DNA of 64,000 nucleotides from Escherichia coli. GTDB taxonomy: Bacteria; Pseudomonadota; Gammaproteobacteria; Enterobacterales; Enterobacteriaceae. The translations under genes were made by a program, and so were the position numbers. Below the pieces are notes generated by a model that worked only from the letters and a program-made list of their open reading frames with translations, was not told where the DNA came from and did not search any database. Every line of letters starts with the position of its first letter. The first letter of the stretch is position 1. The stretch is from NCBI RefSeq assembly GCF_002854065.1, contig NZ_CP024147.1; one strand, written 5' to 3'. Below are positions 39,426 through 62,021 of the stretch, in pieces.

Positions 39426-40616
39426 TTACAGCACTGCCACAATCGCTTCGCACAGCGGAGCCATATTATCTGGTGTCATCCCGGCCACGTTTACGCGACC
39501 AGAAGCAACAGCATACACGCCAAACTCTCCGCGCAGACGCAGCACTTGTTCTTTTGTCAGGCCACTGAAGGAGAACATGCCGTTCTGTTTGATGATAAAG
39601 CTGAAGTCGCGGTTTGCGCCTTTTTCCTGCAGCGTATTGACGAACAACTGACGCATACGCTGAATACGCTGGCGCATATCAGTCAGCTCTTGTTCCCAAA
39701 TCGCACGTAACGCATCGTTGCTCAGGATGGTGGCAACAACAGAAGCGCCGTGTGCTGGTGGGTTAGAGTAGTTAGCGCGAATCGCCGCTTTCATTTGGCT
39801 GAATGCGCGATCAACGGTTTCACTGTCGGCAGCAACCAGAGTACAAGCGCCAACACGCTCGTTGTACAGGCCAAAGTTTTTAGAGTAGGAACTGGCAACA
39901 ATCAGCTCTTTATGCATAGCCGCGAAAGCGCGCAGTCCTTCAGCATCTTCTTCCAGACCACGGGCAAACCCTTGGTAAGCGAAGTCAAACAGCGGTAACC
40001 AGCCTTTCTCAACGGAGAGTTGTGCCAGTGTCTGCCATTGTTCCAGCGTAGGGTCGATACCGGTTGGGTTATGGCAGCAGCCATGGAACAGCACTACATC
40101 GCCAGCCTGAGCTTCGTTCAGACTGTTAATCAGTGCATCGAAGTCAAGGGTGTGATTTTCCGCGTCATAATAAGCGTATTCACGAACTTCCAGACCTGCA
40201 GAGTTAAAGACGCTCTTATGGTTCGGCCAGCTTGGGTTGCTCACCCACACACGCTTAACGCTGGTATTTTTTGCCAGGAAATCGGCAGCTACGCGTAGTG
40301 CGCCAGTGCCCCCCGGAGTCTGTGCCGTGCGAGCACGTTTGTCATTGATCAGGGCGCTACCTTTACCAAATAGCAGTTCCTGAGTGCAGCGACCAAATTC
40401 AGGGATGCCGTCAATGCCGAGGTAATTTTTGGTGGTTTCATTTTCGAGCAGATACTGTTCAGCCTTTTTCACGCTGGTCAGTACCGGGGTTTTGCCCGTC
40501 TCATCTTTATAGACACCAATCCCGAGGTTAATTTTGCCGGGACGTTCATCGGCACGAAACAGATCGGCCAGGCCCAGAATCGGGTCGGCAGGAGCGGCGG
40601 TAATGTTCTCAAACAT
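39426..40616 (-). CDS. aspC: aspartate aminotransferase
   Basis: 396-aa [39 protein letters not shown]... Confidence 0.95.
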
Positions 40617-40744
40617 GACGAGGTTCCATTATGGTTACAGAAGGGAAGTCCGCTATCAGGGTAACGGGAGATTTACAAAATTCCAACTATTACTGATGAA
40701 AACGCAGGCTGTTTTTGCAAGACGTGAGATTGCTCTGGAAGGCA

Positions 40745-40776
40745 TAAAAAAAACAGGACCAACGTCCTGTTTTTTC
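40745..40776 (-). terminator. intrinsic terminator after ompF
   Basis: A-run, CAGGAC-caac-GTCCTG, TTTTTT. Confidence 0.7.
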
Positions 40777-40800
40777 GGCATTTAACAAAGAGGTGTGCTA

Positions 40801-41889
40801 TTAGAACTGGTAAACGATACCCACAGCAACGGTGTCGTCAGAACCTACGCCCAGTTTGTTGTCAGAATCGATCTGGTTGATGATGTAGTCAACATAGGTG
40901 GACATGTTTTTGTTGAAGTAGTAGGTTGCGCCCACTTCAAAGTAGTTCACCAGATCAACATCACCGATACCTTCTACGTCTTTCGCTTTAGATTTGGTGT
41001 AAGCGATGGACGGACGCAGACCGAAATCGAACTGGTATTGCGCAACTAACAGAACGTCTTGCGTTTTGTTGGCGAAGCCGCTGATGTTTGTAAATTTATT
41101 AGTGATCGGCGTAGCGTTACGGGTTTCACCGTAGTTCGCTGCCAGGTAGATGTTGTTCGCGTCATACTTCAGACCAGTAGCCCACTGTTCAGCTTTTTTA
41201 CCGTTGCCAAGAAGTTGAGCTTCTTGCAGGTTGGTACGGTCAGCTGCACCATAAGCACCAACGATACCAAAGCCTTCGTATTCGTAGCTGATAGAACCGC
41301 CAACACCGTCGCCGTTAGAGCGGCGTGCAGTGTCACGCTCGTTTTTACCCAGGTACTGAACAGCGAAGTTCAGGCCATCAACCAGACCAAAGAAGTTGGA
41401 GTTACGATAGGTAGCAACGCCGCCAACACGACCAACGAAGAAGTCATCGCTGTATGCAGTATCACCACCAAATTCTGGCAGCATATCGGTGTAACCCAGT
41501 GCATCATAAACCACACCGTAGTTACGGCCGTAATCGAAAGAACCAACGTCAGCGTATTTAAGACCCGCGAATGCCAGACGCGTTTTGTTACCAGTTTGAG
41601 CGTCAGCGCCTTCAGAGTTGTTACCCTGGAAGTTATATTCCCACTGACCATAACCGGTCAGATCGGAATTGATTTGAGTTTCCCCTTTAAAACCAAGACG
41701 GGCATAGGTCATGTCGCCATTGCCACCGTAACTGTTTTCACCGTTACCCTTGGAGAAATAATGCAGACCGACAGCTTTACCGTACAGATCTACTTTGTTG
41801 CCATCTTTGTTATAGATTTCTGCAGCGTTTGCAGTACCTGCTACTAACAGAGCAGGGACGATCACTGCCAGAATATTGCGCTTCATCAT
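40801..41889 (-). CDS. ompF: outer membrane porin F
   Basis: 362-aa [41 protein letters not shown]..., ending ...GIVYQF. Confidence 0.95.
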
Positions 41890-42016
41890 TATTTATTACC
41901 CTCATGGTTTTTTTTATGACACCTGCCACTGCCGTCAATAATTTCTGTCAATAAAAATTTACGGAACTATTGATGAGAGTTTGGTGTCTTTATGTGTCTG
42001 CAGGCATCTTTCCATT

Positions 42017-42100
42017 CAAACTAACGTTTCGCTACCGTGAAAGTGATACAAAGATAAAGATTTAGTTTCAAAAAGAAAAAATATGTAACTAAAAGTAAAA
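42017..42100 (-). promoter_or_regulatory. OmpR-binding site cluster (F1-F3 region) of the ompF promoter
   Basis: Reverse complement reads TTTACTTTTAGTTACATATTTTTTCTTTTTGAAACTAAATCTTTATCTTTGTATCACTTTCACGGTAGCGAAACGTTAGTTTG with tandem GTTACA/GAAAC-type motifs, upstream of ompF. Confidence 0.6.
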
Positions 42101-42449
42101 ATTAAGGAACTTTGTGAACACCGTCATATTTCCATAGAGGCGTGATGATATTTACAGCAATTTTTATCTATTTATATGATTTCCTTATATTTAAATTAAC
42201 TAAACGGAAATTTTGTTTCTGATGGAAACTTTATCGACCTGGCACAAAATCCTCTTTCAGACATCCAGAATGCCAAAAAATAGTATGAAAATTGTGCTAT
42301 CAGCTAAGAAAAAACTAATCCGCAATAAGAATGCGGGTTATTTTTTGTGCGTAAATGTTGCAATGTAATATTCCGTAACAGGATGATCGTTATGGCGGGG
42401 TTGCAAATAGATTGATTGACTTAACAAACAGATAACTTGACAGAAAGGA

Positions 42450-42478
42450 TAAAAAAGAGCCAGCGGGTGCTGGCTCTT
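42450..42478 (-). terminator. intrinsic terminator after asnS
   Basis: AAAAAAGAGCCAGC-gggt-GCTGGCTCTT. Confidence 0.65.
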
Positions 42479-42490
42479 ATAGACGCTAAA

Positions 42491-43891
42491 TTAGAAGCTG
42501 GCGTTACGCGGAGTACGTGGGAACGGAATCACATCACGCACGTTTTGCACACCAGTTACGTAAGCAATCAGGCGTTCAAAACCAAGACCGAAACCTGAAT
42601 GCGGAACAGTACCGTAGCGACGCAGATCGCGATACCACCAGTAATCTTCTTTATTCAGGCCCATTTCCAGCATACGCTCGTCCAGCACGTCCAGACGTTC
42701 TTCACGCTGGGAGCCACCAATGATCTCACCGATGCCCGGAGCCAGAACGTCCATAGCCGCAACGGTTTTACCGTCTTCGTTGAGGCGCATATAGAACGCT
42801 TTAATATCTTTCGGATAGTTTTTAACCACTACCGGTGCTTTAAAGTGTTCTTCCGCCAGATAACGCTCATGCTCAGAAGAGAGATCGACGCCCCAGTAAA
42901 CCGGGTTTTCAAACTTCCTGCCGCAGTTTTCGAGAATGGTCACTGCGTCGGTGTAATCCACCTGCGCGAAATCGGCCTCAATGAAGCGTTCCAGACGTGA
43001 AACGGCATCTTTATCTACGCGTTCAGCGAAGAATTTCATGTCGTCAGCGCGTTCTTCGAGAACCGCTTTGAAGACATATTTCAGCATGGCTTCAGCCAGA
43101 CCCGCGATATCGTTCAGGTTAGCAAACGCCACTTCCGGCTCCAGCATCCAGAACTCCGCCAGGTGACGGCTGGTGTTGGAGTTTTCTGCACGGAAAGTCG
43201 GGCCGAAGGTATAAATTTTGGACAATGCGCAAGCGTAGGTTTCACCGTTCAACTGACCAGATACGGTCAGGAAAGACTCTTTACCAAAGAAGTCTTTGTC
43301 GAAATCCACTTTACCCTGATCGTTACGCGGCAGGTTTTCCAGATCCAGCGTAGAAACGCGGAACATTTCGCCAGCACCTTCGGTATCAGACGCAGTAATC
43401 AGTGGCGTTGAAACCCAGAAGAATCCCTGCTCGTTAAAGAAGCGATGCAGCGCCTGCGCCAGCGTATGGCGAACGCGCGCGACGGCACCAATCAGGTTTG
43501 TGCGCGGACGCAGGTGAGCGACTTCACGCAGATACTCAATGCTGTGGCGTTTTGCCGCCATCGGGTAAGTGTCTGGATCTTCAACCCAACCAGCAACTTC
43601 AACCTTGCTGGCCTGAATTTCAAATTGTTGCCCCTGGCCCGGCGACGCCACGACTTTACCCGTCACAATGACCGAGCAACCGGTGGTCAGACGCAGGACG
43701 TCTTCATTGTAATTGGGCAGAGAATTATTGATGACAGCCTGTACAGGATCAAAGCAGGAACCGTCATAAACGGCGAGGAAGGAGATGCCAGCTTTTGAAT
43801 CTCGGCGGGTACGTACCCATCCGCGTACGGTGACTTCGCTGTCAACGGCTACGCGGCCCTGGAGTACGTCGGCTACAGGCACAACGCTCAT
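42491..43891 (-). CDS. asnS: asparaginyl-tRNA synthetase
   Basis: Start at [20 protein letters not shown] (466 aa); class II aaRS. Confidence 0.95.
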
Positions 43892-44013
43892 AATATTCTC
43901 TCTGTTAATAGTCGGAAAAAATAAACACTTGTCCACCCGTAAATGGGGGGGATACCTATGTTACCTGGCATCTGCAATCAGACAAGCAGAATTCGCAAAT
44001 GCAGCGAAAGATT

Positions 44014-44040
44014 TCGGAATTAAAGGTAAAAAAAGGAGCC
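44014..44040 (-). terminator. putative intrinsic terminator after pncB
   Basis: A-run followed by GGAGC-cgatta-GCTCC. Confidence 0.5.
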
Positions 44041-44059
44041 GATTAGCTCCCTGATGATA

Positions 44060-45262
44060 TTAACTGGCTTTTTTAATATGCGGAAGGTCGAACGCTTTGC
44101 GCAGCGCCCGAACAAACGCTTTATCGTGGCAGATAGTTTTGCCAGGGCTGTCAGAAAGTTTCGCCACCGGTTTACCGTTACACTCTACCAACTTAATCAC
44201 AATATTCAGGGGTTTTACCTGGGGGATATCGCAGGTCAGGCGAGTCCCAATACCAAAACTTAATTGCACGCGGGAAGAGAAGTGGCGGTATAGCTCAACC
44301 GCTTTGCGTAAATCCAGATTGTCAGAGAAAACCAGCGTTTTACTCTGTGGATCAATTCCCAGCTTTTCATAATGTGCAATGGCTTTTTCACCCCATTCAA
44401 CCGGGTCGCCAGAGTCATGACGCAGGCCCTGATACCGACTTGCGAACTCGACACCGAAATCACGCAGGAAAGCATCCATAGTGATGCAGTCGGTTAATGC
44501 AATGCCAAGTTGGTCGGGATACTCTTCCAGCCAAGCAGCAAGTGCAGCTCGCTGGCTGTTGGCTAGATCCGGGCTGATTTGCTGATGTGCCTGGAACCAT
44601 TCGTGTGCCTGTGTTCCCATCGGCGTGAGGGAAAGCCGACGCGCCAGATCGTAGTTGCTGGTGCCCACGAACCAGGATTCCTGTTGCAGACGCTTAACGA
44701 TGGCTTCTTGTACTTCGCGAGAAAAACGGCGACGGGTGCCAAAATCCATCAGATGGAAGCGCGACATATCAAGACCGGCGGTTAACGCCGAGAAGTCGAC
44801 TAATTTGCTTTCCAGCGTGTCGAGGGCTTGCGCAACGTCGGCCTGCGGTGAGCGATAGCGATGTACCATTTCACTGATAACCGCCAGCAAAGGAACTTCC
44901 CAGAGGATGACTTCACGCCACGGGCCGCTTAAACGAATATCCAGCTTGCCATTATCGTTGGACACGGTGACTTGTTCCGGGTTAAAGCGGAACTCGCGTA
45001 GCCAGTTAAGATAGTCGGCCTTAAAGAAAGGCAGGGCAGAAAGCCACTGATATTCATCATCCTGCAGGCGCAGGTGCTGCATCGCCTGAACCTGTTCACG
45101 AATAGCATCGGCATAAATACCCAGCAGATCGTCACCTCGGCAACGAAACTCCGCCGCGACATGCACATCGTAATAGTGATGAAACACGGCTTGCTGCATA
45201 TGCAACTTATAAGCATCTGTATCCAGCAACGAGTGCAGAACAGGAGAAGCGAATTGTGTCAT
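44060..45262 (-). CDS. pncB: nicotinate phosphoribosyltransferase
   Basis: Start at [24 protein letters not shown] (400 aa). Confidence 0.9.
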
Positions 45263-45527: not shown

Positions 45528-48140
45528 ATGACTCAACAGCCACAAGCCAAATACCGTCACGATTATCGTGCGCCGGATTACCAGATTACTGATATTGACT
45601 TGACCTTTGACCTCGACGCGCAAAAGACGGTCGTTACCGCGGTCAGCCAGGCTGTCCGTCATGGTGCATCAGATGCTCCGCTTCGTCTCAACGGCGAAGA
45701 CCTCAAACTGGTTTCTGTTCATATTAATGATGAGCCGTGGACCGCCTGGAAAGAAGAAGAGGGCGCACTGGTCATCAGTAATTTGCCGGAGCGTTTTACG
45801 CTTAAGATCATTAATGAAATAAGCCCGGCGGCGAATACGGCGCTGGAAGGGCTTTATCAGTCAGGCGATGCGCTTTGCACCCAGTGTGAAGCCGAAGGTT
45901 TCCGCCATATTACGTATTATCTCGACCGCCCGGACGTGCTGGCGCGTTTTACCACCAAAATTATTGCCGATAAAACCAAATATCCTTTCCTGCTTTCCAA
46001 CGGTAACCGCGTTGCGCAAGGCGAACTGGAAAACGGACGTCATTGGGTACAGTGGCAGGACCCGTTCCCGAAACCGTGCTACCTGTTTGCGCTGGTGGCA
46101 GGCGACTTTGATGTACTGCGCGACACCTTTACCACGCGTTCTGGTCGCGAAGTAGCACTGGAGCTGTACGTCGATCGCGGCAACCTTGATCGCGCGCCGT
46201 GGGCGATGACCTCGCTGAAAAACTCAATGAAATGGGATGAAGAACGCTTCGGCCTGGAGTATGACCTCGACATCTATATGATCGTCGCGGTGGATTTCTT
46301 CAATATGGGCGCAATGGAGAATAAGGGGCTGAATATCTTTAACTCCAAATATGTGCTGGCCCGCACCGATACCGCCACCGACAAAGATTACCTCGATATT
46401 GAACGCGTTATCGGCCATGAATATTTCCATAACTGGACCGGTAACCGAGTGACCTGCCGCGACTGGTTCCAGCTCAGCCTGAAAGAAGGTTTAACCGTCT
46501 TCCGCGATCAGGAATTCAGCTCTGACCTCGGTTCCCGCGCGGTAAACCGTATCAATAATGTGCGCACCATGCGCGGATTGCAGTTTGCGGAAGACGCCAG
46601 CCCGATGGCGCACCCAATCCGCCCGGACATGGTCATTGAGATGAACAACTTCTACACCCTGACTGTTTACGAGAAGGGCGCGGAGGTGATTCGCATGATC
46701 CACACCCTGCTTGGCGAAGAAAATTTCCAGAAAGGGATGCAGCTCTATTTCGAGCGTCATGATGGTAGCGCAGCGACCTGTGACGATTTTGTGCAGGCGA
46801 TGGAAGATGCGTCGAATGTCGATCTCTCCCATTTCCGCCGTTGGTACAGCCAGTCCGGTACGCCGGTTGTGACCGTCAAAGACGACTACAATCCGGAAAC
46901 CGAGCAGTACACCCTGACCATCAGCCAGCGCACGCCAGCCACGCCGGATCAGGCAGAAAAACAGCCGCTGCATATTCCTTTTGCCATCGAATTGTATGAC
47001 AACGAAGGCAAAGTGATCCCGTTGCAGAAAGGCGGTCATCCGGTGAATTCCGTGCTGAACGTCACCCAGGCGGAACAGACCTTTGTTTTTGATAATGTCT
47101 ACTTCCAGCCGGTGCCTGCGCTGCTGTGCGAATTCTCTGCGCCAGTGAAACTGGAATATAAGTGGAGCGATCAGCAACTGACCTTCCTGATGCGTCATGC
47201 GCGTAATGATTTCTCCCGTTGGGATGCGGCGCAAAGTTTGCTGGCAACCTACATCAAGCTGAACGTCGCCCGTCATCAGCAAGGGCAGCCGCTGTCTCTG
47301 CCGGTACATGTGGCTGACGCTTTCCGCGCGGTGCTGCTCGATGAGAAGATTGATCCGGCGCTGGCGGCAGAAATCCTGACGCTGCCTTCTGTCAATGAAA
47401 TGGCTGAACTGTTCGATATCATCGACCCGATTGCTATTGCCGAAGTACGCGAAGCACTCACTCGTACTCTGGCGACTGAACTGGCGGATGAGCTGCTGGC
47501 TATTTACAACGCGAATTACCAGAGCGAGTACCGTGTTGAGCATGAAGATATTGCAAAACGCACTCTGCGTAATGCCTGCCTGCGCTTCCTTGCTTTTGGT
47601 GAAACGCATCTGGCTGACGTGCTGGTGAGCAAGCAATACCATGAAGCAAACAATATGACCGATGCGCTGGCAGCGCTTTCTGCGGCGGTTGCCGCACAGC
47701 TGCCATGCCGTGACGCGCTGATGCAGGAGTACGACGACAAGTGGCATCAGGATGGTCTGGTCATGGATAAATGGTTTATCCTGCAAGCCACCAGCCCGGC
47801 GGCGAATGTGCTGGAGACGGTGCGCGGCCTGTTGCAGCATCGCTCATTTACCATGAGCAACCCGAACCGTATTCGTTCGTTGATTGGTGCGTTTGCGGGC
47901 AGCAACCCGGCAGCGTTCCATGCCGAAGATGGGAGCGGTTACCAGTTCCTGGTGGAAATGCTTACCGACCTGAACAGCCGTAACCCGCAGGTAGCTTCGC
48001 GCCTGATTGAGCCGCTGATTCGCCTGAAACGTTATGATGCCAAACGTCAGGAGAAAATGCGCGCGGCGCTGGAACAGTTGAAAGGGCTGGAAAATCTCTC
48101 TGGCGATCTGTACGAGAAGATCACCAAAGCACTGGCTTAA
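45528..48140 (+). CDS. pepN: aminopeptidase N (M1 family)
   Basis: 870-aa ORF with GAMEN and HEYFHNWTGN (HExxH) zinc motifs. Confidence 0.95.
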   Translation: MTQQPQAKYRHDYRAPDYQITDIDLTFDLDAQKTVVTAVSQAVRHGASDAPLRLNGEDLKLVSVHINDEPWTAWKEEEGALVISNLPERFTLKIINEISPAANTALEGLYQSGDALCTQCEAEGFRHITYYLDRPDVLARFTTKIIADKTKYPFLLSNGNRVAQGELENGRHWVQWQDPFPKPCYLFALVAGDFDVLRDTFTTRSGREVALELYVDRGNLDRAPWAMTSLKNSMKWDEERFGLEYDLDIYMIVAVDFFNMGAMENKGLNIFNSKYVLARTDTATDKDYLDIERVIGHEYFHNWTGNRVTCRDWFQLSLKEGLTVFRDQEFSSDLGSRAVNRINNVRTMRGLQFAEDASPMAHPIRPDMVIEMNNFYTLTVYEKGAEVIRMIHTLLGEENFQKGMQLYFERHDGSAATCDDFVQAMEDASNVDLSHFRRWYSQSGTPVVTVKDDYNPETEQYTLTISQRTPATPDQAEKQPLHIPFAIELYDNEGKVIPLQKGGHPVNSVLNVTQAEQTFVFDNVYFQPVPALLCEFSAPVKLEYKWSDQQLTFLMRHARNDFSRWDAAQSLLATYIKLNVARHQQGQPLSLPVHVADAFRAVLLDEKIDPALAAEILTLPSVNEMAELFDIIDPIAIAEVREALTRTLATELADELLAIYNANYQSEYRVEHEDIAKRTLRNACLRFLAFGETHLADVLVSKQYHEANNMTDALAALSAAVAAQLPCRDALMQEYDDKWHQDGLVMDKWFILQATSPAANVLETVRGLLQHRSFTMSNPNRIRSLIGAFAGSNPAAFHAEDGSGYQFLVEMLTDLNSRNPQVASRLIEPLIRLKRYDAKRQEKMRAALEQLKGLENLSGDLYEKITKALA

Positions 48141-54587: not shown

Positions 54588-54629
54588 TAGACTGGCCCCC
54601 TGAATCTCCAGACAACCAATATCACTTAA
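54588..54629. repeat. IS2 terminal inverted repeat (transposase-proximal end)
   Basis: Imperfect match to the reverse complement of 55877-55918, sharing TCCAGACA and ATCACTTAA blocks. Confidence 0.6.
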
Positions 54630-54678
54630 ATAAGTGATAGTCTTAATACTAGTTTTTAGACTAGTCATTGGAGAACAG

Positions 54679-55044
54679 ATGATTGATGTCTTAGGGCCGG
54701 AGAAACGCAGACGGCGTACCACACAGGAAAAGATCGCAATTGTTCAGCAGAGCTTTGAACCGGGGATGACGGTCTCCCTCGTTGCCCGGCAACATGGTGT
54801 AGCAGCCAGCCAGTTATTTCTCTGGCGTAAGCAATACCAGGAAGGAAGTCTTACTGCTGTCGCCGCCGGAGAACAGGTTGTTCCTGCCTCTGAACTTGCT
54901 GCCGCCATGAAGCAGATTAAAGAACTCCAGCGCCTGCTCGGCAAGAAAACGATGGAAAATGAACTCCTCAAAGAAGCCGTTGAATATGGACGGGCAAAAA
55001 AGTGGATAGCGCACGCGCCCTTATTGCCCGGGGATGGGGAGTAA
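54679..55044 (+). CDS. insC: IS2 OrfA / InsC (HTH DNA-binding)
   Basis: 121 aa [56 protein letters not shown]... Confidence 0.9.
54996..55002 (+). promoter_or_regulatory. A6G slippery heptamer (programmed -1 frameshift site of IS3-family transposase)
   Basis: AAAAAAG at the insC/insD overlap, where the insD frame opens. Confidence 0.6.
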
Positions 55045-55907
55045 GCTTAGTCAGCCGTTGTCTCCGGGTGTCGCGTGCGCAGTTGCACGTCATTCTCAGA
55101 CGAACCGATGACTGGATGGATGGCCGCCGCAGTCGTCACACTGATGATACGGATGTGCTTCTCCGTATACACCATGTTATCGGAGAGCTGCCCACGTATG
55201 GTTATCGTCGGGTATGGGCGCTGCTTCGCAGACAGGCAGAACTTGATGGTATGCCTGCGATCAATGCCAAACGTGTTTACCGGATCATGCGCCAGAATGC
55301 GCTGTTGCTTGAGCGAAAACCTGCTGTACCGCCATCGAAACGGGCACATACAGGCAGAGTGGCCGTGAAAGAAAGCAATCAGCGATGGTGCTCTGACGGG
55401 TTCGAGTTCTGCTGTGATAACGGAGAGAGACTGCGTGTCACGTTCGCGCTGGACTGCTGTGATCGTGAGGCACTGCACTGGGCGGTCACTACCGGCGGCT
55501 TCAACAGTGAAACAGTACAGGACGTCATGCTGGGAGCGGTGGAACGCCGCTTCGGCAACGATCTTCCGTCGTCTCCAGTGGAGTGGCTGACGGATAATGG
55601 TTCATGCTACCGGGCTAATGAAACACGCCAGTTCGCCCGGATGTTGGGACTTGAACCGAAGAACACGGCGGTGCGGAGTCCGGAGAGTAACGGAATAGCA
55701 GAGAGCTTCGTGAAAACGATAAAGCGTGACTACATCAGTATCATGCCCAAACCAGACGGGTTAACGGCAGCAAAGAACCTTGCAGAGGCGTTCGAGCATT
55801 ATAACGAATGGCATCCGCATAGTGCGCTGGGTTATCGCTCGCCACGGGAATATCTGCGGCAGCGGGCTTGTAATGGGTTAAGTGATAACAGATGTCTGGA
55901 AATATAG
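55002..55907 (+). CDS. insD: IS2 OrfB / InsD (DDE transposase catalytic domain)
   Basis: 301-aa ORF in the -1 frame relative to insC ([34 protein letters not shown]...). Confidence 0.9.
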
Positions 55908-55918
55908 GGGCAAATCCA
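55877..55918. repeat. IS2 terminal inverted repeat (distal end)
   Basis: Reverse complement matches 54588-54629 imperfectly. Confidence 0.6.
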
Positions 55919-60924: not shown

Positions 60925-61010
60925 TTTTTTTGCCGCAGGTCAATTCCCTTTTGGTCCGAACTCGCACATAATACGCCCCCGGTTTGCACACCGGGAATCC
61001 AGGAGAGTTC

Positions 61011-62021
61011 ATGTACTACCCCTTCGTTCGTAAAGCCCTTTTCCAGCTCGATCCAGAGCGCGCTCATGAGTTTACTTTTCAGCAATTACGCCGCATTACC
61101 GGAACACCGTTTGAAGCACTGGTGCGGCAGAAAGTGCCTGCAAAACCTGTTAACTGCATGGGCCTGACGTTTAAAAATCCGCTTGGTCTGGCAGCCGGTC
61201 TTGACAAAGACGGGGAGTGCATTGATGCGTTAGGCGCGATGGGATTTGGATCGATCGAGATCGGTACCGTCACGCCACGTCCACAGCCAGGTAATGACAA
61301 GCCGCGTCTCTTTCGTCTGGTAGATGCCGAAGGTTTGATCAACCGTATGGGCTTTAATAATCTTGGCGTTGATAATCTCGTAGAGAACGTAAAAAAGGCC
61401 CATTATGACGGCGTCCTGGGTATTAACATCGGCAAAAATAAAGATACGCCAGTGGAGCATGGCAAAGATGACTATCTGATTTGTATGGAAAAAATCTATG
61501 CCTATGCGGGATATATCGCCATCAATATTTCATCGCCGAATACCCCAGGATTACGCACACTGCAATATGGTGAAGCGCTGGATGATCTCTTAACTGCGAT
61601 TAAAAATAAGCAAAATGATTTGCAAGCGATGCACCATAAATATGTGCCGATCGCAGTGAAGATCGCGCCGGATCTTTCTGAAGAAGAATTGATCCAGGTT
61701 GCCGATAGTTTAGTTCGCCATAATATTGATGGCGTTATTGCAACCAATACCACACTCGATCGTTCTCTGGTTCAGGGAATGAAAAATTGCGATCAAACCG
61801 GTGGCTTAAGTGGTCGTCCGCTTCAGTTAAAAAGCACCGAAATTATTCGCCGCTTGTCACTGGAATTAAACGGTCGCTTACCGATCATCGGTGTTGGCGG
61901 CATCGACTCGGTTATCGCTGCGCGTGAAAAGATTGCTGCGGGTGCCTCACTGGTGCAAATTTATTCTGGTTTTATTTTTAAAGGTCCGCCGCTGATTAAA
62001 GAAATCGTTACCCATATCTAA
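61011..62021 (+). CDS. pyrD: dihydroorotate dehydrogenase (quinone)
   Basis: Start [21 protein letters not shown] (336 aa). Confidence 0.9.

Follow-up and report, generated by a model that had tools for sequence, protein, structure and literature searches.

The ompF promoter of Escherichia coli is a textbook example of a gene both activated and repressed by a single response regulator, and the model of its control by OmpR comes from the K-12 literature (PMC3050692, PMC543474). At low osmolarity a small amount of phosphorylated OmpR binds the sites F1 and F2, or F1, F2 and F3, cooperatively and activates a weak promoter, and at high osmolarity a larger amount fills the weak distal site F4 as well. 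The model then has the occupied F4, at a distance of 260 bp from F1 (PMC3050692), loop back to F1-F3 to switch transcription off. The small RNA MicF additionally blocks translation of ompF. Within the boxes, the C of F3 is described as critical, as are the AC doublets in F1 and F2, the start of F3 differing by 2 bp among sources (PMC1489923), and a 17-mer OmpR consensus, GTTACATTTTGTTACAT, has been derived from ChIP-exo data (PMC5438342). OmpR-box mutations of ompF are recurrent and enriched in carbapenemase-carrying E. coli lineages; "-46 C>T (OmpR F3)" and "-91 G>A (OmpR F1)" are both listed among the promoter mutations, and in the ST410 OXA-181 subclade the former is reported to lower the ompF mRNA level 15-30 fold (PMC6970295). 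The practical angle of such changes is antibiotic permeability. Two further reports bear on the region upstream of the promoter: a transcript termed C0240, detected on tiling arrays opposite ompF and between ompF and asnS (PMC3082872), and a CRP site in the ompF promoter of Yersinia pestis, DNase-footprinted at -131 to -109 (PMC3050693).

The locus considered here lies in a 64-kb stretch of E. coli DNA, analysed as a whole and called the window below. The genes aspC, ompF, asnS and pncB follow one another in that order, all on the minus strand, and near-identical E. coli genomes show the same arrangement in their RefSeq annotation (the genomes that supply the gene names are 99.8-100% identical across the region). 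The ompF DNA does not differ from the ompF annotated in strain 100416, and the flanking genes named in the first-pass annotation, ompF and asnS, are supported by translation as well as by RefSeq. Between the asnS stop (42491) and the ompF ATG (41889) lies a spacer of 601 bp (41890-42490) with a G+C content of 33%, as against 0.50 for the window, and its open reading frames are short ones only, in keeping with the earlier description of some 600 bp of AT-rich non-coding sequence preceding ompF. This spacer is matched in 5,424 of 5,426 complete E. coli genomes, is 99.8% identical to its best match, strain 100416, and is 97% identical to that of a K-12 strain, in which it measures 602 bp and with which it aligns unambiguously, base for base. 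Judged by its sequence, the window is an ordinary segment of a non-K-12 E. coli chromosome, and the intact ompF region confirms this.

Comparison with the two nearest complete genomes reveals 7-14 substitutions over about 45 kb, together with a single-base indel relative to one of them. Elsewhere in the window, the same comparison brings out an insertion of 1,331 bp at 54588-55918, inside the fimbrial usher gene elfC; the inserted DNA matches sequence that many E. coli genomes annotate as an IS2 (IS3 family) transposase, and a 5-bp overlap of the alignments suggests a target-site duplication. A ComEC-family gene carries two non-synonymous substitutions, S285L and G582R (20768 and 21658), that are private to the window with respect to both nearest genomes, and a private substitution in pepN, at 46979, is synonymous. 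A permissive Rfam scan of 40500-44200 found no family; over the whole window, the only family at the gathering threshold is the PyrD leader (RF02373, 97.9 bits) at 60943-61016 on the plus strand, upstream of pyrD.

The region upstream of ompF is almost certainly, as its sequence indicates, the canonical E. coli ompF regulatory region, with the OmpR sites F1, F2 and F3 in tandem and F4 at a distance (Table 1). The first-pass annotation had already called this known biology, and so it is. The identification rests on gene identity and synteny, the alignment to K-12, the published numbering of the mutations at -46 and -91, motifs that are unique in the window, and a footprint of conservation over 84 species.

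Table 1. Features of the asnS-ompF region in the window. Positions are those of the window; features on the minus strand that are given from high to low read in the ompF sense.
Feature	Position	Strand	Basis
aspC	39426-40616	-	ORF list
ompF CDS	40801-41889	-	362-aa porin OmpF; ORF and translation
MicF pairing region, over ribosome-binding site and start codon	41878-41905	-	predicted from duplex energy
ompF 5' UTR, 110 nt	41890-41999	-	start placed as in the K-12 promoter; Shine-Dalgarno GAGGG 41903-41899
Core promoter	42006-42034	-	-10 AAAGAT 42011-42006; 17-nt spacer; weak -35 TAGCGA 42034-42029
OmpR site F3 (-60 to -41)	42059-42040	-	CTTTATCTTT GTATCACTTT; 19/20 bases as in K-12
OmpR site F2 (-80 to -61)	42079-42060	-	TTTTCTTTTT GAAACTAAAT; 19/20 bases as in K-12
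OmpR site F1 (-100 to -81)	42099-42080	-	TTTACTTTTA GTTACATATT; 19/20 bases as in K-12
CRP-like site TATGA-N6-TCACA	42110-42131 (core 42128-42113)	-	centred near -121.5; conservation
Promoter-like site TTTACA-18-TATGAT	42151-42180	+	10/12 consensus positions
Conserved AT-rich block (ATAAGnAAtTCATATAnATAG)	42165-42200 (-201 to -166)		16/36 columns at least 95% conserved
Terminator-like hairpin, both strands	42316-42347	+	stem 42316-42340; plus-strand T-run to 42347; terminator scan
OmpR site F4 (-380 to -361)	42379-42360	-	GTTACGGAAT ATTACATTGC; 20/20 bases as in K-12
asnS intrinsic terminator	42447-42478	-	10-bp stem, then T-run; terminator scan; 11/32 columns at least 95% conserved
asnS CDS (asparagine--tRNA ligase)	42491-43891	-	ORF and RefSeq annotation of near-identical genomes

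For the numbering, we take the start of ompF transcription to lie 110 nt 5' of the ATG, at position 41999 of the window, as in the K-12 promoter, and the boundaries of the four boxes to be the K-12 footprint limits, cross-checked through secondary sources. A start at 41999 places F1-F3 at -100 to -41 and F4 at -380 to -361. With this start, the conserved C of the F3 word GTAGC falls at -46 and K-12 has a G at -91, as the two published mutations demand; a start placed one base to either side would lose one of the two matches, which supports the numbering. The critical positions of PMC1489923 coincide with the same bases in this mapping. A full-text literature search for the OmpR box sequences themselves found no paper, and the comparison with the published footprints is an indirect one, by way of K-12 sequence identity and the -46/-91 numbering; carried out in that manner, the alignment to published sites that had been proposed as a check gives coordinates that agree.

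In this mapping F1, F2 and F3 are contiguous 20-bp sites in tandem, each composed of two 10-bp half-sites, with (T/G)xxAC-type cores in phase; most of the half-sites carry an AC doublet (F1a, F1b and F2b) or a variant that keeps the 10-bp phase. The interval 42017-42100, originally put forward as the F1-F3 region, does contain the whole block (42040-42099), but its stretch from 42017 to 42039 is the -35 region and spacer. The half-sites by which that interval had been recognized, GTTACA and GAAAC, are both present: on the reverse complement, GTTACA at 42089-42084 and GAAAC at 42069-42065 fall within the boxes, and a second GAAAC, at 42030-42026, belongs to no F box.

Short AT-rich words are common in a spacer of this composition, and it could be argued that GTTACA and GAAAC occur here by chance and mark no real OmpR sites, all the more as the GAAAC outside the boxes lies within the interval first proposed. 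The statistics of longer patterns speak against such coincidence. Allowing at most three mismatches, the 17-mer consensus has one match on both strands of the 64 kb, at 42099-42083 in F1, where 0.18 are expected; the phased three-site pattern GWWAC-N15-GWWAC-N15-GWWNC likewise occurs once in the window (0.02 expected), at 42089-42045, which is exactly F1b-F2b-F3b; and GTTAC-N5-DTTAC is found once (0.21 expected), at 42379-42365 in F4. The OmpR words exceed the level expected by chance in AT-rich DNA, and the sequence is that of the K-12 regulatory region.

Conservation among species points the same way. Scanning for a pattern that represents the conserved beginning of ompF identified 120 species, and in 100 of these the end of asnS was found upstream on the same strand. 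A long spacer (518-786 bp, mostly 590-610 bp) is present in 84 of them, which by record title are Enterobacteriaceae, bar a few unclassified or probably mislabelled records, and which were aligned with L-INS-i; in the other 16, Erwiniaceae of the genera Pantoea, Erwinia, Mixta and Tatumella, the asnS-ompF spacer measures about 300 bp. Across the 84 long spacers the conserved columns of F1 are the A at -97 and TTACA at -89 to -85, the latter (in F1b) invariant bar one base in one species. Those of F2 are TTTC at -79 to -76 and G..AC at -70, -67 and -66; all but one base of TTTC, together with the G and A of G..AC, are invariant, and the two remaining bases are retained in 83 and 78 of the 84. 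In F3b the word GTAGCA (-50 to -45) is invariant except at -47, which is G in 83 species. The columns between these positions vary freely, and the flanking spacer lacks the invariance, or near invariance, of the core bases. Taken together, the alignment to K-12, the phased pattern and the conservation across 84 species refute the reading of the words as chance matches, which retains a practically negligible probability, and leave the canonical sites F1-F3 as the identification of this block. How OmpR binds this copy, and how the copy responds to osmolarity, we infer from the K-12 literature; the genes ompR and envZ lie outside the window.

The stretch at 42350-42385 with a GTTAC word, offered in the first-pass annotation as a possible distal site, is indeed where F4 lies. 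The sequence GTTACGGAATATTACATTGC at 42379-42360 is identical to K-12 and occurs once in the window, its GTTAC word falls at 42379-42375 on the reverse complement, and the gap between F4 and F1 is 260 bp here as in the published account. Among the 84 long-spacer species, each base of the GTTAC at -380 to -376 is retained in 60-81, and the bases of the TTTC/TTAC core that follows 10 bp downstream are retained in 55-78. The short-spacer Erwiniaceae retain F1-F3 and a CRP-like site and have no room for F4, in agreement with the published account of Yersinia, where F4 is missing.

A different account can be given of the DNA between about 42150 and 42350, according to which it is mainly a divergent unit on the plus strand, C0240, that would start at the promoter-like site (42151-42180) and end at the terminator-like hairpin (42316-42347), with the GTTAC of F4 incidental to it. 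The promoter-like site agrees with the consensus at 10 of 12 positions, and the hairpin, which adjoins F4, folds on the plus strand at -15.7 kcal/mol; together they would yield a plus-strand transcript of approximately 160 nt, and the tiling arrays did register an opposite-strand transcript between ompF and asnS (PMC3082872). The hairpin is also partly conserved: in the Salmonella representative its stem is preserved through changes on both arms, and the flanking A-run (in the ompF sense; the T-tail of the plus strand) is conserved, and better so than the other flanking run. Set against this account are the absence of an Rfam match here, the first hexamer, which is unconserved, and the second, which lacks the final T in most species. 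More directly, F4 lies outside the putative unit, beyond its terminator, at exactly -380 to -361, and is conserved independently. An antisense open reading frame at 42213-42368 (48-51 aa) was considered as a gene and rejected, being truncated in K-12, running through the hairpin and being absent from the Salmonella and Citrobacter representatives; its lack of conservation counts against the unit as well, and makes a short non-coding divergent transcript the likelier reading of whatever is transcribed there. On balance it seems improbable that the region is chiefly such a unit with an incidental F4. The two readings, of a C0240 unit and of F4, are not mutually exclusive, and the assignment of 42379-42360 to F4 is retained in what follows.

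The conserved AT-rich block between F4 and F1 overlaps the TATGAT hexamer of the plus-strand promoter-like site, and it too was weighed as the -10 element of a conserved plus-strand promoter. The reading was discarded on the two hexamer observations just given, and any plus-strand promoter here would not extend beyond the close relatives of E. coli. IHF footprints have been reported in the ompF upstream region in the older literature. With at most one mismatch allowed, the IHF consensus WATCAANNNNTTR has no match between F4 and F1, none at the AT-rich block and no enrichment over shuffled sequences; its sole match, at 42417-42405, is upstream of F4.

Immediately upstream of F1, the sequence TATGA-CGGTGT-TCACA at 42128-42113 (-129 to -114) carries nine of the ten core bases of TGTGA-N6-TCACA and is followed directly by AAGTTCC. 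All 100 species, the 16 Erwiniaceae included, conserve the block that it forms (TATGA-CGGTGT-TCACAAAGTTCC, about -132 to -108), which is the most conserved block of the upstream region (14 of 23 columns at or above 95% in the 84-species alignment). It occupies the same position as the CRP footprint of Y. pestis (PMC3050693), which suggests a putative CRP site and for which we use the term CRP-like.

Downstream of the OmpR sites, the -35 element, the 17-nt spacer and the -10 element are identical to those of K-12, and 20 of the 29 core promoter columns are at least 95% conserved across the 84 species. Conservation within the spacer is highest in the 5' UTR, where 63 of 110 columns reach the same threshold and one base differs from the K-12 leader. 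A MicF sequence that Rfam identified at an E. coli ompC locus was folded against this leader. The full-length RNA gave an over-extended and uninformative duplex and was set aside in favour of its first 33 nt, which pair with the ompF leader at -27.1 kcal/mol, against -11.8 +/- 2.7 for shuffled leaders; on this predicted energy the MicF target in the leader is intact.

There are three single-base differences from K-12 within F1-F3, at -91 (G>A), -65 (C>T) and -47 (G>T). Two fall at variable positions: the A at -91, in F1, is shared with the nearest relative of the window and is found in 33 of the 84 species (T in 43, G in 8), and the T at -65, in F2, is found in 52, with the C of K-12 in 27. 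The third is of another kind. At position 42046 the plus strand of the window has an A, that is, a T at -47 in the ompF sense, and F3b reads GTATCA in place of the GTAGCA of K-12. A 61-nt query centred on this base has no exact match in the 5,339 matching complete E. coli genomes, all of which carry at least the mismatch at -47; the position is G in both nearest genomes, and over 100 species it is G in 98, T in one and A in one. A metagenome scan returned no match for -47T, but the wild-type control returned only 16, so that the scan has little power. This private base change in F3, which the first-pass annotation did not mention, is the only item of any novelty in the region.

What the change does, if anything, can be considered along two lines. 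The sites may be canonical and this copy nonetheless functionally altered, the -47 G>T shifting the occupancy of F3 by OmpR and most likely lowering ompF transcription. A G kept in 5,339 E. coli genomes, in both nearest genomes and in nearly every species examined argues for such an effect, as does the neighbouring change: -47 adjoins the C at -46, in a site that abuts the -35 element, and -46 C>T cuts ompF mRNA 15-30 fold, in a box of a kind whose mutations recur in resistant lineages (PMC6970295). On the opposing side, the GNNNC frame of F3b is intact, and the window has four private substitutions over about 45 kb with respect to its two nearest genomes, of which one in the spacer may be drift or sequencing error. 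In addition, GTATC is found, sequence confirmed, at the equivalent position of an OmpR site upstream of ompC, which we take to be C3; that functional site indicates that a T at this position is compatible with binding. An altered copy of this kind is possible but, in our estimation, doubtful, and we would regard a measurable effect of -47 G>T on ompF expression as rather unlikely. Were -47 to act like -46, the strain would make less OmpF, and the change might then, tentatively, be a case of cis-regulatory re-tuning, a second single-base down-regulation of the porin through F3 beside -46 C>T. Reduced OmpF, if true, would have modest value for resistance surveillance and for working out which bases of F3 are important. 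The canonical F1-F3 and F4 sites remain the reading of the region in either event, with an F3 change that could make this copy behave unlike that of K-12.

Comparison with the known systems places the locus as follows. The ompF region of K-12 is the same locus with the same architecture, identical in F4, -35 and -10; the differences at -91 and -65 are at positions that vary between species, and the one at -47 is private to the window and affects a nearly invariant base. The ompC promoter is similar in having three tandem 20-bp OmpR sites, C1-C3, 5' of a weak promoter, the promoter-proximal of which carries GTATC, the same pentamer as F3b of the window, but it serves another gene, is without a distal repressing site and is activated at high osmolarity (PMC3050692, PMC543474). 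The ompF promoter of Y. pestis shares the tandem F1-F3 and a CRP site just upstream of F1, but it is without F4 and shows no repression of ompF at high osmolarity (PMC3050692), whereas the window has F4. The ompF promoter of the ST410 OXA-181 subclade likewise has a single-base change in F3b, at the base adjacent to -47, within an otherwise intact region (PMC6970295). That subclade has lost the conserved C of GNNNC, and its ompF mRNA falls 15-30 fold, whereas in the window the C is kept and the base preceding it is changed.
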